A stretch of DNA of 64,000 nucleotides from an uncultured delta proteobacterium. Its GTDB lineage: Bacteria; Desulfobacterota; Binatia; UBA9968. Both the position numbers and the translations under genes were made by a program. Location: assembly GCA_963745835.1 (NCBI GenBank), contig CAVUZH010000014.1, forward strand, positions 256,001-320,000, written 5' to 3'. Positions 16,107 through 39,386 of this stretch are shown here, piece after piece (within the stretch, counting starts at the first letter, position 1; each line of letters begins with the position of its first letter). The notes beneath the pieces are model-generated. The model had not been told where the DNA came from. It searched no databases and worked only from the letters and a program-made list of their open reading frames with translations.

Positions 16107-17408
16107 ATGTTTGACAAAATCACGGCTCGATCCAAGGGATTTTTTTACGGCTGGTGGATGGTGGCCGTGGGTTGCGGCATGCGCATGCTCGGCGGCGGCT
16201 TTCATCTCTACGGCTTTACGATTTTTTTCTTGCCGATCACCCAAGAGTTGGGCTTGACTCGAGCGGCGACTTCCCTGGTCTTCTCGTTAGCCCGGGCTGA
16301 AGGCGCCATCGAAGGGCCGTTGGCGGGTTACTTAATCGATCGCTTCGGGCCGCGCCCGATGATGCTGGCGGGGGTGATCTTGTCAGGCGTAGGTTACATG
16401 CTGCTCGCCGGAGTCGAAACCTATTATGGCTTGATCGCGATCTATCTGGGCGTGATCTCATTATCCTTCTCGGCCGGCTTCATGCATTCTCCCATGGTCC
16501 TCGCCAATAGCTGGTTCATCCGGCGCAGGGCCTTGGCGATGACCTTGATCAGCAGCTCCATCGGTATCGGCGGTACTCTGATCACACCACTGCTGGCCTT
16601 CAGCGTCCAGACCTGGGGTTGGCGTTATGGAGCTTTTTTGTCCGGCCTCGGATTGATCCTGATCGGCGTGCCTGTGGCGCTCCTGGTCAAACGTTCACCC
16701 GAAAGCATGGGCTTGGCGCCCGACGGTGCCGCGCCGGAAGAGAAAGACGCGACGGCGGTCAAAACCACACGTAAAGCTAACCGGCACGTTAATGAGGATG
16801 AAATTGAGTTCACTCTTCGGCAAGCGATGCGCACCGCCGCCTTCTGGATCATGATCCTGGCCACCACCACGCGAGTTGGCGTGTTCAATGCGATTACGGT
16901 TCACTTCGTGCCGATCATGGTCTGGAAAGGCGCGAGCGAGCAGCGCGCCGCGGCGCTGCTGGCGACGATGGCGCTGATGAGTTTACCATCGCATTTGCTG
17001 GTCGGCTGGATTGCGGATCATGTCAGCAAACCACGGCTGATGGCGGCTTGCATGGGCGTGGGCGCGCTGTCGATTGCCTTCTTGGCCTATGGCGAAGGAG
17101 AATGGTCACTCTGGATGTTCGTTCTACTCTTTACGATCATGGAAGCAATCTTTCCGGTCGGCTGGGCAACCGTAGGCGATTTTTTTGGCCGAAAATCTTT
17201 CGCGACGATCCGCGGCACGATGAGTTTTTTCTACTTATGGGGACCTGCGCTGGGGCCTGTCATCACCGGCGCGATCTATGATCGATATCAAAGTTATGCG
17301 CCGATGATGTCGGTGTATATCGCGCTGTCGGTGATCGCGGGCTGCCTCTATGCAATGATGGCCCCGCCGAAGCGCGCTAACCTGTCGGCTGCTGAATCAG
17401 CCTCATAG
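16107..17408 (+). CDS. MFS transporter (paralog A1)
   Basis: FFYGWWMV, GYLIDRFGPR, GWIADHVSK, GDFFGRKSFATIRG; about 12 TM helices. Confidence 0.9.
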   Translation: MFDKITARSKGFFYGWWMVAVGCGMRMLGGGFHLYGFTIFFLPITQELGLTRAATSLVFSLARAEGAIEGPLAGYLIDRFGPRPMMLAGVILSGVGYMLLAGVETYYGLIAIYLGVISLSFSAGFMHSPMVLANSWFIRRRALAMTLISSSIGIGGTLITPLLAFSVQTWGWRYGAFLSGLGLILIGVPVALLVKRSPESMGLAPDGAAPEEKDATAVKTTRKANRHVNEDEIEFTLRQAMRTAAFWIMILATTTRVGVFNAITVHFVPIMVWKGASEQRAAALLATMALMSLPSHLLVGWIADHVSKPRLMAACMGVGALSIAFLAYGEGEWSLWMFVLLFTIMEAIFPVGWATVGDFFGRKSFATIRGTMSFFYLWGPALGPVITGAIYDRYQSYAPMMSVYIALSVIAGCLYAMMAPPKRANLSAAESAS

Positions 17409-17469
17409 GTTTCGCTGCACTCGTTCGGATCGCTTCAACGTACTGAAGCGTACGCCTTATATTACTGTA

Positions 17470-17650
17470 GTCATACTCGATGATAGATATTGCATTGTCG
17501 TCCAAGAAGCTTGCTGGTTAGAGGACCTTACGTACGCGATTCCGTTAGAGGATCTAGCTGAGACTGTCCCGACCAGCAAAAGAACGGAGTCAAAAGTTCT
17601 ATGGAAAGTTGTCCCGTCGAGGACCGATATAAGGCTAACGTTCCGTTCAC
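17470..17650 (+). ncRNA. IS110 bridge RNA (5' stem-loop, target-binding loop, donor-binding loop); ends approximate
   Basis: Guides CGTACGC (17531-37) and AGCTGAG (17556-62) match the target. ATGGAAAGT (17601-09) and ATATAAG (17627-33) match the donor junction. Each pair lies in an internal loop closed by stems. Confidence 0.88.
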
Positions 17651-17690
17651 AGCTATTGGAGTAAAGTAAGCAAAGAAGGAGGACAACAAA

Positions 17691-18917
17691 GTGCCACGAT
17701 ATTATCTGGGAGTAGATTGGGCAGACCGAGTACACCAGCTCTACGGTGGCGACGAGAACGGGATAAAGGTAATGGAGATGAAAGTCCAAGAGAACCCTGA
17801 AGGGCTGGCGGAGTTGGCGCATTGGCTCAATCAGAGCAGAGCTGAGCAGGTGGAGCTGTGGGCGGCGATCGAGAAGCCGCACGGGCGCATTGTGGATTTT
17901 CTTTTGGATCATGGGGTAGTGGTTTATCCGGTCAATCCCAAGGTCTTGGATCGTGCTCGGGACCGGTTTCGCATGAGTCAATCCAAGAGCGACCCCTTTG
18001 ACGCTTGGGTACTGTCGGATTTTCTTCGGACCGACCACGGTCACCTCAGGCCCCTTCGGCCAAGCTCTGAGCAGGCCCAGGAGCTTAAGCTGCTTACCCG
18101 GGATCAGCAAAGAATGGTGCGTCACAAAACGCGTTTGCTCAATCAGCTCAAGTTCACTCTCAAGGAGTACTATCCTCGACCGGTGGAGGTTTTTGGGGAT
18201 CTGGAGGCTCGTATAGCAGTAGACTTTCTCAAGCAGTATTCGACGCCAACGGCGCTCTCGAAGCTTAGCCGTAAGCAGTGGAGCCGATTTGCCCAGCAGC
18301 ATCCTCATCTTGGTAAAGCACGCAGTGCCAAGCTGTGGGAGGAGCTGAAAAAGCCGCAACTTGTGGTTCCCGATCACGTCGTCAGAGCCAAGGCGCAGTT
18401 GCTCGAAGTGCTGCTCGATCAGCTTGAGGCTTCGCTGCGAAGCATAGAGAAGTACAGCGACAAGGTCGAACGTTTTTTCGCCTCTACACCGGCCGCTAGG
18501 CTTGTGGAGAAGCTGCCGGGAGGGAAAAGCGGAACGTTGCTGCCGGCCCTTTGGGCCGAGCTGGGAGATGCCCCAGCTCGATGGGAATCCTTTAAGCACC
18601 TTCAGGCCGAAGCGGGAGCAGTCCCGGTGACCAAATCGAGTGGCAAGAGTCGCATTGTTGAGTTTCGGTTTTCTTGTAACAAACAATTGCGCTACGCCGT
18701 CTACTGGTTTGCTTTTATCTCGATAAACCGCAGCCAGTGGGCCAAGGCCTTTTATCGAGACCAACGGGCCAGAGGACACAGCCATCCCCAAGCACTTCGG
18801 GCTTTGGGAGCGAAGTGGTTGAAAATTATTTTTGTGCTGTGGAGAGATCATAAACCTTATGACGAAACCCATCACTTGGCCAACATTGCACGACAGAAAA
18901 TGCGCCAGGCAGCGTGA
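17691..18917 (+). CDS. IS110-family DEDD recombinase/transposase
   Basis: D9 (LGVDWA), E61 (IEKP), D101/D104 (KSDPFDA); C-terminal AGAVPVTKSSGKS catalytic-Ser motif; GTG start after AGGAGG. Confidence 0.95.
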   Translation: MPRYYLGVDWADRVHQLYGGDENGIKVMEMKVQENPEGLAELAHWLNQSRAEQVELWAAIEKPHGRIVDFLLDHGVVVYPVNPKVLDRARDRFRMSQSKSDPFDAWVLSDFLRTDHGHLRPLRPSSEQAQELKLLTRDQQRMVRHKTRLLNQLKFTLKEYYPRPVEVFGDLEARIAVDFLKQYSTPTALSKLSRKQWSRFAQQHPHLGKARSAKLWEELKKPQLVVPDHVVRAKAQLLEVLLDQLEASLRSIEKYSDKVERFFASTPAARLVEKLPGGKSGTLLPALWAELGDAPARWESFKHLQAEAGAVPVTKSSGKSRIVEFRFSCNKQLRYAVYWFAFISINRSQWAKAFYRDQRARGHSHPQALRALGAKWLKIIFVLWRDHKPYDETHHLANIARQKMRQAA

Positions 18918-18934
18918 AATAAAATCGATGGGGC

Positions 18935-18957
18935 TTGACAGGGCTCATAGAAAGTCT
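18935..18957 (+). promoter_or_regulatory. -35 half of the IS110 circle-junction promoter
   Basis: TTGACA (18935-40) + 15 nt + CT joined to TATATT (17458-63) gives TTGACA-N17-TATATT. Confidence 0.85.
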
Positions 18958-19049
18958 CAGCTCATCCAACTTCGCGCGCCTTGCCTCTGAGGTCTTTTGA
19001 GCAGCCTCAGTCAAGCTCCCAGGACCTACTCTCGTCAGGTAGATTCATT

Positions 19050-20442
19050 GGTAGCGTCAAGAGTTGTGTGTAAAATCTTCGACGGGGTTTATACTCCAGT
19101 TAGTATTCAAGTGATGAAACACAGCGAAGACGATTCTTTGTAAACTCTGGGTATGAGCCATCACCCCCATGGGGCGAGTTCTTCGTCTGACTTCTCGAAA
19201 GGTCCGTTCGATTAAGTTGGTGGTCCTTAAGCGGCTCCACAGCTTAGAGTTCTTGATGGCAAAGAAGCTCAGCAGCTGATCGAAGTCTTTCTTTAAGCAA
19301 GCCACCGCTCTGGGATAAGCCTTTCTCCAACGTGAGGAAAATCGCCAGTAAGCCTGAGCCGCTTCTCGGCGATTGGCCGCATGGCTGATCCGGTTTAAAG
19401 CCGTCTTGACCGCCGGCTGGTCTTTCTTTTTCACTTTATCTAAGACGTTTCTGGTTTTGTGCGCCCAGCAGCGCTGTAGCAGGGGCTTGGGATAAATGAT
19501 CTGTAAGGCGTGATGCAGTCCCGTGCCGCCATCAGTAGCCATCAACTGGCACTGGCTCCCTTTGAGTCCTCTTCTGTAGAGATCGGCTAAGAAAGCTTCC
19601 CAGCAGGCCGCCGACTCACTGGCGGCCGGGTAAAAGTCGATCATTTCATGATGGCCTTCGACGGTGATGCCGAAGGCGCAAAGGAGGATTTTCTTTTGCA
19701 CCTTAAGCGCTCCCTTGCTCTTTAACACCACACCATCGAAGAACAGATAGCGGTAGCGATCCTGGAGCGAGCGGTCGTGATAACGACTGACCTCTTGATC
19801 CAACCCCCGCGCAATGCGTGAAATGGTCGAGGCCGAGACCTTCTCGCCCAAAACCGGCGCCAGTACCGCGGCAGCTTTGCGGGTGGACAGTCCCAAACAA
19901 AAACACGCCAACAGAACCCTATCCACTGAGCGGCAGCGCCGGGCATAGCGCTCAAAGAGCTTGGTCGGAAAACCGCCTTTGCGGCGGCGCGGCACTAACA
20001 GTTCTAAATCACCCATCTCGGTCAGCAGATGCCTTATGTAATACCCATTGCGGTAGTCCGGTCGATCCAATGCATGCTCGTAACGAGACAGCCCTAAGTA
20101 CTCGGCCATATCTTCTTCGAGCTGCTTCTGCACCAGTTCTTTGAGCACCTGGAGCGCCATCGGTTTAAAGTCTCCCTCCCAATCAAAACCGTTGATCTCA
20201 TTAAGAGCTCGCGATACATTTCTTGACGTTGCTTGATCGAGCAGCATCGGGGTGCCCTCCTCTTGTTTGTGTTGGTTGCACAACTCTGGAGTTAGCACCC
20301 CTTCTATTTTTTCCCAATCTAAAAATGACTTAGGCTTTTCCCTTAACCACCTCCCAATCCTCTCTTCTCGCCCAAATGTGAAAGTCATTTTCTCCCATCC
20401 TCTCTCCCCAATTCGAATTTACACACAGATCCATACATCACC
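19050..20442 (-). mobile_element. IS256-family insertion sequence, complete
   Basis: 8-bp TSD GATTCATT at 19042-49 and 20443-50; imperfect ~28-bp IRs GGTAGCGTCAAGAGTTGTGTGTAAAATC / GGTGATGTATGGATCTGTGTGTAAATTC. Confidence 0.92.
19057..20247 (-). CDS. IS256 (Mutator-like) DDE transposase
   Basis: YRNGYY.R.L.T.MG.L.L.VPR, LGLSTR, YLFFDG, ATDGGTGL, QRCWAHKTRN, RTTNLIER. Start moved to ATG 20247 after GAGGAGG. Confidence 0.93.
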   Translation of the reverse strand: MLLDQATSRNVSRALNEINGFDWEGDFKPMALQVLKELVQKQLEEDMAEYLGLSRYEHALDRPDYRNGYYIRHLLTEMGDLELLVPRRRKGGFPTKLFERYARRCRSVDRVLLACFCLGLSTRKAAAVLAPVLGEKVSASTISRIARGLDQEVSRYHDRSLQDRYRYLFFDGVVLKSKGALKVQKKILLCAFGITVEGHHEMIDFYPAASESAACWEAFLADLYRRGLKGSQCQLMATDGGTGLHHALQIIYPKPLLQRCWAHKTRNVLDKVKKKDQPAVKTALNRISHAANRREAAQAYWRFSSRWRKAYPRAVACLKKDFDQLLSFFAIKNSKLWSRLRTTNLIERTFREVRRRTRPMGVMAHTQSLQRIVFAVFHHLNTNWSINPVEDFTHNS

Positions 20443-20564: not shown

Positions 20565-21833
20565 ATGCTTCGCGAACTTCGCGACCGGCTGGCCGGTCTA
20601 TTTTATGGCTGGCGCATGGTCGGCGTCAGTTGCGCTATCCGCCTTCTCGGCGGCGGGCTACATGCATACGGTTTTACCGTTTTCTTTCTACCCATCACTC
20701 AAGAGTTAGGCCTCTCACGGGCCGCGACTTCGTTGGTTTTCTCTCTGGCGCGCGCTCAAGGCGCGATTGAAGGACCGGTGGCTGGCTATTGTATCGACCG
20801 GTATGGACCGCGGCCGGTAATTTTTGTCGCAACTCTTTTGGCCGGTATAGGCTATATGCTCCTGGCCGGAGTGCACAGTTATACCGCTCTGCTGATTGTC
20901 TACATGGGGATCATCTCGCTCTCCTACCAAGCCGGGTTTATGGATGCCACCATGGTGGTCGCCAACAGCTGGTTTATTCGCAAACGAGCTCTGGCCATGT
21001 CGCTCACCAGCGGTTCCATCGCGCTTGGCGGCACCCTGTTCACTCCGTTTCTCGCTTACGCCGTGCACACGTGGGGTTGGCGCAGCGCCGCGATCGGCGC
21101 CGGAGTGGCCTTTCTTCTCGGTGGTCTGCCCCTGTCCATGCTGCTGCGCCGCTCGCCGGAGAGTATGGGCTTGTTGCCGGATGGCGAGCCGTTGCCCAAA
21201 ACACCCGACGCAAAAGGATCAACCCACCCCGGTGAGGAAGCAAATTTTTCTCTGCAGCAAACCTTACGCTCGCGCCAGTTCTGGTTGCTCGCGGTCGCCA
21301 CGACGCTACGCGTAGTTTGCTCCAGCTGTGTCCTGGTCCATTTCGTGCCAATCCTGGTTTGGCGCGGTTTGACCGAGCAGCGCGCCGCCTTTTTCCTGGC
21401 GTTTATCGCTTTGCTCGGCATGCCGGCGCATCTCACAATCGGCTGGCTCGGCGATCGCCTTAACAAGCCCAGGCTAATGGCCACGTGTATGATCATTGCA
21501 AGCTTGTCGGTCTATTTGCTGTTTTCATACACCGTGGAATGGCAACTCTGGCTGGCGCTGGTGCTCTTCACCGTAGTGGAAGGGCTTTTTCCCGTTACGT
21601 GGGCGACCGTAGGCGATTTTTTTGGCCGGAATAATTTCGCCAAAGTTCGCGGCAGCATGAGCTTTCTTTACATGTGGGGTAGCGTCATAGGTCCGGTGAT
21701 GGCCGGCGCTGTGTACGATCGCACCCAAAGCTACAGTCCACTGATGTGGGCACTGATCAGTTTGTGTTGGGTGACAGCGCTCATCTATGCTGTACTGGTC
21801 AAACCGAGCTCCCGTTCTTCTTCTCTTAGCTAA
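20565..21833 (+). CDS. MFS transporter (paralog A2)
   Basis: Colinear with 16107-17408 (YGFTVFFLPITQELGL, AIEGP, RSPESMGL, WATVGDFFGR). Confidence 0.9.
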   Translation: MLRELRDRLAGLFYGWRMVGVSCAIRLLGGGLHAYGFTVFFLPITQELGLSRAATSLVFSLARAQGAIEGPVAGYCIDRYGPRPVIFVATLLAGIGYMLLAGVHSYTALLIVYMGIISLSYQAGFMDATMVVANSWFIRKRALAMSLTSGSIALGGTLFTPFLAYAVHTWGWRSAAIGAGVAFLLGGLPLSMLLRRSPESMGLLPDGEPLPKTPDAKGSTHPGEEANFSLQQTLRSRQFWLLAVATTLRVVCSSCVLVHFVPILVWRGLTEQRAAFFLAFIALLGMPAHLTIGWLGDRLNKPRLMATCMIIASLSVYLLFSYTVEWQLWLALVLFTVVEGLFPVTWATVGDFFGRNNFAKVRGSMSFLYMWGSVIGPVMAGAVYDRTQSYSPLMWALISLCWVTALIYAVLVKPSSRSSSLS

Positions 21834-35302: not shown

Positions 35303-35363
35303 AAAAGATCTCAGAGCCGAGCGATGATCCCAACTCAGCATATGAATCTTTTTTAGCAACCTG
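35303..35363. repeat. Internally deleted, decayed copy of the ~120-bp palindromic repeat
   Basis: CAAAAGATCTCAGAGCCGAGCG resembles CAAAAGACCTCAGAGGCAAGGCG; ends ATCTTTTTTAGCAACCTG. Confidence 0.5.
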
Positions 35364-39274: not shown

Positions 39275-39386
39275 CAGGCAGGTCAAAGAGATCTTAGATG
39301 TGAGTCTTCGCTAAAGTTGGATCCGTAAACAATAAGGTTGCATGGGATGAGCACAACTTGACCGATAGATCACTTTGAGCAGCCTG
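39275..39386. repeat. Decayed full-length copy of the palindromic MITE/REP-like repeat
   Basis: IR CAGGCAGGTCAAAGAGATCT vs rc CAGGCTGCTCAAAGTGATCT (17/20); shares AAGTTGGAT and TTTGAGCAGCCT with the IS110 target repeat. Confidence 0.65.

Follow-up and report, generated by a model that had tools for sequence, protein, structure and literature searches.

A probable bridge-RNA-guided IS110 element nested in an older IS5-type miniature transposon of a Binatia genome

We analysed a 64,000-nt stretch of DNA (the window; contig C14:256001-320000) from the 7.28-Mb, 25-contig genome of an uncultured member of the Binatia, and propose that an IS110-group insertion sequence at positions 17458..18957 is an IS621-type bridge recombinase element that entered an older MITE, a miniature inverted-repeat transposable element. 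We put the probability of this reading at about 0.9. Coordinates without a contig name are window positions, and features lie on the forward strand unless stated otherwise.

The insertion sequence measures 1,500 bp, including one copy of a CT core that is present at both of its junctions (17456-57 and 18956-57), and it has no long terminal repeats. Its recombinase gene (17691..18917) encodes 408 aa with matches to PF01548 (E 7e-31) and PF02371 (E 2e-10), scores above the cut-off of NF033542 and, by reading of the sequence, carries the residues D9, E61, D101 and D104 and a C-terminal SG motif (S317). The left end is long (233 bp, against 40 bp on the right) and non-coding. On these sequence features we assign the element to the IS110 group of the IS110 family, that is, to the bridge recombinases; among named sequences, those nearest to its transposase bear the label Candidatus Binatia. 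BLAST located three full copies in the genome, including the window copy, together with one 89-bp left stub. The window copy is 99.1-99.6% identical to the two other full copies, and one full copy has a frame break.

All four copies, the stub included, are joined to the same CT in the same orientation, each inside a copy of one repeat, against a background of 802,956 CT sites on both strands of the genome. A first-pass annotation of the window had predicted that every copy would lie in such a repeat, and no copy was found at an unrelated site. The flanks at 17387-17457 and 18958-19006 rejoin with a single CT to give the 120-bp empty site, with the ends that the annotation had described. The 14-mer target occurs exactly 16 times in the genome, each time inside a repeat copy; the same holds for 16 of 17 sites with one mismatch and for 32 of 60 sites with two. 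The equivalent MITE site is also occupied in loci L001, L022, L023 and L087 of our set.

The left end contains a predicted bridge RNA (17509..17648) with a target loop and a donor loop. In the predicted fold of the 233-bp end there are two hairpins with internal loops, and four guide segments lie in order within them, the same order as in IS621 (PMC11208160). The first hairpin contains the 7 bases to the left of the core (17531-17537) and the complement of the core plus 5 right-hand bases (17556-17562), which match the site; the second holds 6 of the 7 left-donor bases (17604-17609) and the complement of the core plus the right donor (17627-17633), which match the donor. The fold by itself is no evidence, since the overall folding z of the left end is -0.7; among 100,000 doublet-shuffled versions of the same sequence, 18 contained both target guides at once. 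A perfect -35 hexamer, TTGACA, lies at 18935..18940, and joining the ends as a circle would place it 17 bp upstream of a -10 hexamer with five of six consensus bases at 17458-17463. Both hexamers are also present in the relatives inspected, and we predict from sequence a sigma-70 promoter at the circle junction. Rfam had no match between 16000 and 21000. Contigs from two public runs (X10 and X15) contain further copies of the insertion sequence whose left flanks are other MITE variants, and one RNA-library contig, which may be DNA, spans 17450-18650. Joints that skip the insertion sequence in run contigs were considered as evidence of excision and rejected, since other, empty MITE copies explain them.

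Across relatives the guide loops change together with the sites, which bears out the annotation's description of the element as programmed. A transposase search gave 29 loci, and 16 elements, including that of the window, had a parsable target loop and right flank. The right end is common to all 29 loci, and the donor loop and element ends are constant; the transposases of the full-length relatives are, with one exception, 65-95% identical to the query. The right guide pairs with its own site at 74 of 80 positions in the 16 elements, with three more G-T wobbles, whereas the permuted mean was 43.3 and none of 20,000 permutations reached 74. The left guide was scored as the best of three registers, in data and permutations alike, and L006 was dropped for its short flank; in the remaining 15 elements it agrees with the site at 86 of 105 positions (permuted mean 56.5; 0 of 20,000). 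When the elements were collapsed to 9 distinct right and 13 distinct left guides, the counts were 41/45 and 75/91, and still no permutation in 20,000 reached them.

Sorted by hand on their right flanks, the 29 loci comprise 3 in the MITE, 9 in repeats resembling BoxC, 7 in a C-rich hairpin class, 4 in a class marked by CTGAG, the pair L007 and L017, and 4 others. We counted site patterns in each relative's own genome, with reversed-pattern controls giving 0. The BoxC-like patterns occurred 19, 2, 10, 15 and 60 times, the hairpin-class patterns 20, 6, 0 and 5 times (the 0 being the genome of L015), the CTGAG-class patterns 102, 25, 35 and 18 times, and the MITE core 26 and 21 times. The L007 flank had at least 40 matches in the genome of L017 and only itself in its own. 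The guide-derived site of L112 was multicopy (7, against 1 in the control), whereas the L003 motif stayed at control level, the sites of L002 (4 against 2) and of L101 and L113 (1 against 0) were not shown to be multicopy, and the guides of L107 and L114 predict one exact site, likewise not shown to be multicopy. We conclude that most, but not all, of the tested relatives use multicopy repeats. The BoxC-like pattern has no match in the window genome and is not a target there. A search with the bridge RNA in 90 genomes of the family gave matches in 23; about half of these loci were already known and were counted once. In a tree of 17 proteins, from which L003 and L018 were left out for in-frame stops, 5 of 14 inner branches have good support, too few to settle how many retargeting events took place or in what order; the hairpin class falls in two well-supported clades.

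Two further arrangements were seen among the relatives. L104 and L106 carry guides of the CTGAG class and are sited just behind left parts of the MITE, which suggests repeats nested in repeats. L003 and L004 are identical elements in two records, in which other sequence stands in place of the left end and left guide and the agreement between right guide and right flank persists.

The host repeat was delimited by three rounds of nhmmer started from the rejoined site. This gave 155 matches, or 152 once overlaps were removed, of which 120 are nearly complete; they take up 0.23% of the genome, and the repeat is thus multicopy, as the first-pass annotation had stated. The window copy is divided into a left part (17387..17457; profile positions 1-72, E 6.7e-12, with the CT core at 17456-17457) and a right part (18958..19006), which runs from the right target (18958-18962) through the inner terminal repeat and stops short of the outer 24-bp end. 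The outer bases of the terminal repeat are decayed in the left part, and the window copy has lost both outer ends. The proposed 120-bp unit is real as a rejoined site, but the full unit is about 148 bp with its ends further out. Flank profiles show conservation past both 120-bp ends; the left end starts 2 bp further out, where the unit opens with a CAGG terminal repeat preceded by YTAR. A second terminal repeat lies about 24 bp beyond the 120-bp right end in 50 of 111 anchored copies, compared with none at the mirror position, and 49 of these 50 copies measure 144-151 bp. The unit also carries a third, internal terminal repeat. Identical 4-bp flanks occur in 16 of the 50 copies, compared with 5.9 expected, a count that none of 2,000 shuffles reached, and YTAR is present at both sides in 20 of the 50. 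Duplication is confined to the outer ends; none was found at the ends of the 120 bp.

The same ends occur on intact transposons of relatives. Seven of 30 DUF772 loci from the family (L041, L047-L051 and L053) share the MITE ends on both sides, with YTAR flanks, and measure 1.3-1.4 kb; L047 is assigned to the IS5 family (NF033581), and one intact IS5 element sharing the MITE ends comes from the same genus as the window genome. An eighth locus, L057, has a MITE-type end on one side. The expectation that an autonomous element would share the termini thus held in relatives, with none found in the window genome. From the target duplication and the ends shared with these intact elements, we classify the repeat as an IS5-type MITE, and an IS5-family transposase probably mobilised it. 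The annotation had described a MITE or REP-like family with IS5- or IS1182-type ends; its IS5 part stands, and IS1182 elements (L042 and L039) have similar tips with different flanks. Copies of the MITE have a mean identity of 70% and a median nearest-neighbour identity of 88%; this divergence indicates that the family is old in the genome, and of 151 genomes sampled across the class, 17 contain a match to it.

Several other sequences in the genome resemble the MITE in part. Two in the window had been named as its decayed relatives. The one at 35303..35363, on the reverse strand, is an internally deleted copy without the target (local E 1.8e-6, outside the genome-wide list); the other, at 39275..39386, with no strand assigned, shares little beyond a tip (local E 0.017), which leaves its membership doubtful, and it may come from a different family whose ends are of IS5 type. 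The same IS5-type tips recur, around an AT-richer interior, in elements at C13:646801-646933, C22:294005, C22:300983-301140 and C15:57381, and we regard these as further MITE subfamilies. The lone DUF772 gene of the genome belongs to an element at C24:392.0-393.6 kb that is IS1182-like by reading, lies at a contig end, has a frame break and has ends unlike those of the MITE.

We considered whether pairing is the whole of target recognition. Pairing may set the address while insertion also requires, or is strongly aided by, a hairpin in the DNA of the site, as reported for ISPpu10; the clade would then move among hairpin repeats as better substrates and not only as harmless ones. This would add to the bridge-RNA reading rather than replace it, and we give it somewhat less than an even chance. 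The MITE has a family-wide stem of 5 bp with a variable 4-8-nt loop (17439..17454 in the window), intact in 78 of 120 copies, with a 3' arm that extends into the left target (17449-17455), which is the geometry described for ISPpu10 (preprint 10.64898/2026.03.19.712850). Of 14 rejoined sites that were folded, 12 are not in the MITE, and in 10 of these the core falls within or beside a hairpin, L002 and L009 not clearly so; the single exact site predicted by the L107/L114 guides also falls in a hairpin. However, the geometry is not kept, since the BoxC-like and related hairpins include the core and right target and not the 5' side, and the invariant MITE stem offers no covariation. The CGCTTCA/TGAAGCG hairpin (17431-17450) that had been highlighted beside the target is real, but it marks a subfamily (17 of 120 copies); it is present in 13 of the 16 perfect-target copies, so nearly coincides with the perfect target that the two are inseparable in this genome. 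The term 'palindromic' fits the repeat only loosely: 25 copies gave a median folding z of -2.8 relative to a crude doublet shuffle, and in a consensus fold built from 49 copies only the 5-bp stem remains.

The window genome contains five other IS110 genes, and two of them belong to an IS1111-like element that also uses the MITE. Full copies, encoding a 338-aa NF033542 protein, lie at C22:70.3-71.7 kb and C19:502.6-504.0 kb, and internally deleted remains at C22:64.8-65.3 kb and C3:491.0-491.5 kb. All four split the MITE terminal repeat at the same point, three in the outer right end and one in the left end. The right end of this element is long (about 310 bp) and non-coding, and segments within it match both sides of its site; in the relative L117 both guide segments and the site have changed together. 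With its 330-350-aa transposase class, its guide-bearing right end and a subterminal repeat visible by eye only, the element has the traits of the IS1111 group. The MITE does not house the third IS110 element (C5 and C15) or the one on C13.

These observations allow a broader reading, which we offer tentatively and consider less likely than the hairpin requirement, in which the IS110 clade is a repeat-hopping specialist and the MITE is attacked by two unrelated guided elements. On a constant scaffold and donor, the guide would be rewritten often and nearly always onto a hairpin repeat abundant in the host; the MITE, the BoxC-like repeats and at least three other families would be its targets, with the same class reached more than once. 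The enzyme might favour hairpin-forming sites or take new guides from such repeats, and the second element, in breaking the MITE terminal repeat, could have helped to stop the spread of the MITE.

It is unlikely that the host repeat is instead a REP (repetitive extragenic palindrome) or a structured non-coding RNA family. The missing cognate transposase in the genome, the old, diverged copies and the conserved inner stem are what would be expected of such a family, but the unit also has terminal repeats and duplications of 4 bp, as intact IS5 elements do, and these are not. REPs are GTAG/CGTC-tagged and 20-40 bp long (PMC3733652); a palindrome of that size with a tetranucleotide tag, and with neither terminal repeats nor duplication, does not describe a unit of about 148 bp that has both. 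The copies also show no strand bias relative to flanking genes (34 versus 30), and Rfam had no match in two intact copies (search of L031-L033). The REP half of the annotation's classification is therefore set aside.

The locus itself records the order of events. A gene for a major facilitator superfamily (MFS) transporter (16107..17408; MFS_1, E 5e-38) has its last six codons and stop in the repeat, ending AAESAS-stop within the repeat left end exactly as had been read from the window. In the congener L072 the orthologous site holds an uninterrupted repeat with neither insertion sequence present; its MFS gene is 98% identical and ends AAETAS-stop. In four same-genus orthologues without the repeat left part the stop comes 7-9 codons sooner and the final residues are different. 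At the orthologous locus the repeat is absent from L073, L075 and L076 and a remnant in L074, the intergenic sequences being too different for a clean empty site. The whole repeat of L072, free of either insertion sequence, indicates that the MITE came first, giving the MFS gene its last codons, and that the IS110 element followed. Identity among the IS110 copies is 99.1-99.6%, whereas among their host MITEs it is 79-84%; each IS110 copy therefore represents its own insertion into a repeat copy that was already there.

Two further rivals fare poorly against this history. That insertion is loose, with survival only in neutral repeats, or that the protein alone reads the site, is very improbable. 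The repeats are mostly intergenic and the 28 two-mismatch sites outside them are all empty, as loose insertion would have it, but survival could not single out one particular base and orientation, and a protein-only reading does not accommodate guide loops that change with the site while all but one of the full-length relatives have transposases 65-95% identical to the query. That the insertion sequence and MITE moved as one unit by an IS5 transposase, one old insertion being copied, is more improbable still: an element nested between terminal repeats could in principle move whole and would then hold an identical position in all copies, but hosts that differ by 16-21% around insertion sequences that differ by less than 1% refute this for these copies, the window host lacks its outer ends and is uninterrupted at the same locus in a congener, and no IS5 partner was found in the genome.

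Other remnants and insertions were noted at or near these sites. The left stub at C14:580170-580258 is cut within the target loop, with no remainder of the insertion sequence and no MITE right half behind it, and is the mark of a deletion or rearrangement. At L087:1452-1738 (G088) a MITE copy holds a remnant of about 180 bp, consisting of the insertion sequence's left end only and joined to the right target at the donor-loop CT; from its sequence it is probably a decayed mini-element with only the bridge RNA, or an aberrant recombination product. An intact-looking IS256-family element (19050-20442; 443 aa, PF00872, 8-bp duplication) entered 43 bp beyond the MITE, either before or after the IS110 element, and is absent from the congeners' orthologous site. 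The tandem MFS genes (16107-17408 and 20565-21833) are separated by a short gap that holds a different repeat or remnant in several of L072-L076, and this gap is a spot of repeat turnover.

We propose the following sequence of events. An IS5-family transposase would have spread a non-coding derivative of its own ends, of about 148 bp, into YTAR sites, giving about 150 copies that have since diverged. By analogy with work on IS621 and ISEc21, the IS110 element would excise as a circle, whose joined ends would form an active sigma-70 promoter that drives expression of the bridge RNA. The pairing partner of the donor loop would be the circle junction, and that of the target loop the 14-bp site just past the conserved stem of the MITE; the recombinase would exchange strands at the common CT. 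The benefit to the IS110 element would be a supply of harmless intergenic sites. The midpoints of 104 of 120 MITE copies fall outside crude calls of open reading frames, which make up 79% of the genome; this fits the safe-harbour idea and does not show selection for it.

A number of observations weigh against this proposal. Only 3 of 19 perfect sites are filled (16 exact sites being empty), and the stub lies in a one-mismatch site. In the window copy the core is included in the right guides and lies outside both left guides, which thus lack pairing with the CT, unlike in IS621, although some relatives keep C or CT at that position; the left target guide is also one base off the register of several relatives, and that of L008 matches at only 2 of 7 positions. 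The permutation test treats kin as independent, which they are not. Neither the circle junction nor evidence of the RNA was found in contigs of four public runs, which show both poorly. With regard to the MITE, no IS5 partner with its ends was found in the genome (the best tblastn match covers 54 aa), and a neighbour at 98% identity or above exists for only 2 of 128 copies; its mobility is for these reasons either past or a matter of inference.

Bridge-RNA targeting of a resident repeat is a known habit, to which this case adds an example and no new mechanism. IS110-family elements enter REPs (PMC11208160, PMC1525189 and PMC3184786) and also attC sites, transposon ends and IS3 genes, each group with its own site (PMC11187229). 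The parallel that had been drawn with IS621 and REPs is apt. The bridge RNA of IS621 from Escherichia coli has target and donor loops in the left end and a junction promoter, its core is paired by all four guides, and concordance of guide and site across natural orthologues has already been reported (PMC11208160). The window element resembles it in its DEDD and Tnp20 recombinase, CT core, predicted left-end bridge RNA and junction promoter, and multicopy intergenic repeat target. It differs in that the target is an IS5-type MITE and not a REP, in left guides without the core and right guides that pair over 7 bases, and in a length of 408 aa, against 315-330 aa in the IS621 branch and 395-455 aa in the IS110 subgroup (PMC11187229). 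Core pairing by all four guides is a feature of IS621 rather than of the whole family. ISPpu10/ISPpu9 and ISRm19 are alike in their fixed position within an intergenic repeat, CT core, stricter right guide and short stem overlapping the left target (PMC1525189 and preprint 10.64898/2026.03.19.712850), and the preprint reports that the target stem-loop aids ISPpu10. ISPpu10 homologues, as described there, keep one REP and one 5' stem-loop, whereas the window clade has moved among unrelated repeat families with different hairpin geometry.

The use of one mobile element as the target of another also has precedents. IS4321 and IS5075 reportedly target the terminal repeats of Tn21; they too are IS110-family elements directed at another mobile element, and the second element described here likewise splits a terminal repeat. 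ISEc21 targets IS3-family genes, and a naturally redirected guide has been described for ISMch6 in comparison with ISEc21 (PMC11187229). The present case differs from both in that the host is non-autonomous and that two unrelated guided elements use it at two positions. Among miniature transposons, MITEPye1 (PMC11578231), Nezha and Chunjie (PMC3184786) are likewise shorter than 200 bp, gene-less and intergenic, with terminal repeats like those of insertion sequences and 4-bp duplications; the window MITE differs in its IS5-type ends, its third, internal terminal repeat and its roughly 150 old copies, and matched no described family in the literature searched.

The literature searches brought up nothing on this MITE and nothing on IS110 elements in Binatia or in BoxC, although such elements may be listed in the supplementary material of PMC11208160 or among the targets catalogued in PMC11187229; within these searches the MITE, the IS110 clade, the double use of one MITE and the BoxC-like targets seem to be unrecorded. 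The 408-aa bridge recombinase of the window, with its 7-base right guide, is uncharacterised. In its compact clade the scaffold is constant and about ten guide-site pairs occur naturally, which makes two questions testable: how nature rewrites such guides, and whether hairpins at the target have a role in addition to pairing. BoxC is the TM-ECO triplex repeat, for which, according to PMC4666352, no link to mobile elements was found in E. coli. The sites of L011, L012, L018 and their kin fit the reverse complement of the consensus given there, but here, in contrast, relatives of the window element carry guides for such repeats, which ties a repeat described without any link to mobile DNA to a guided transposon.

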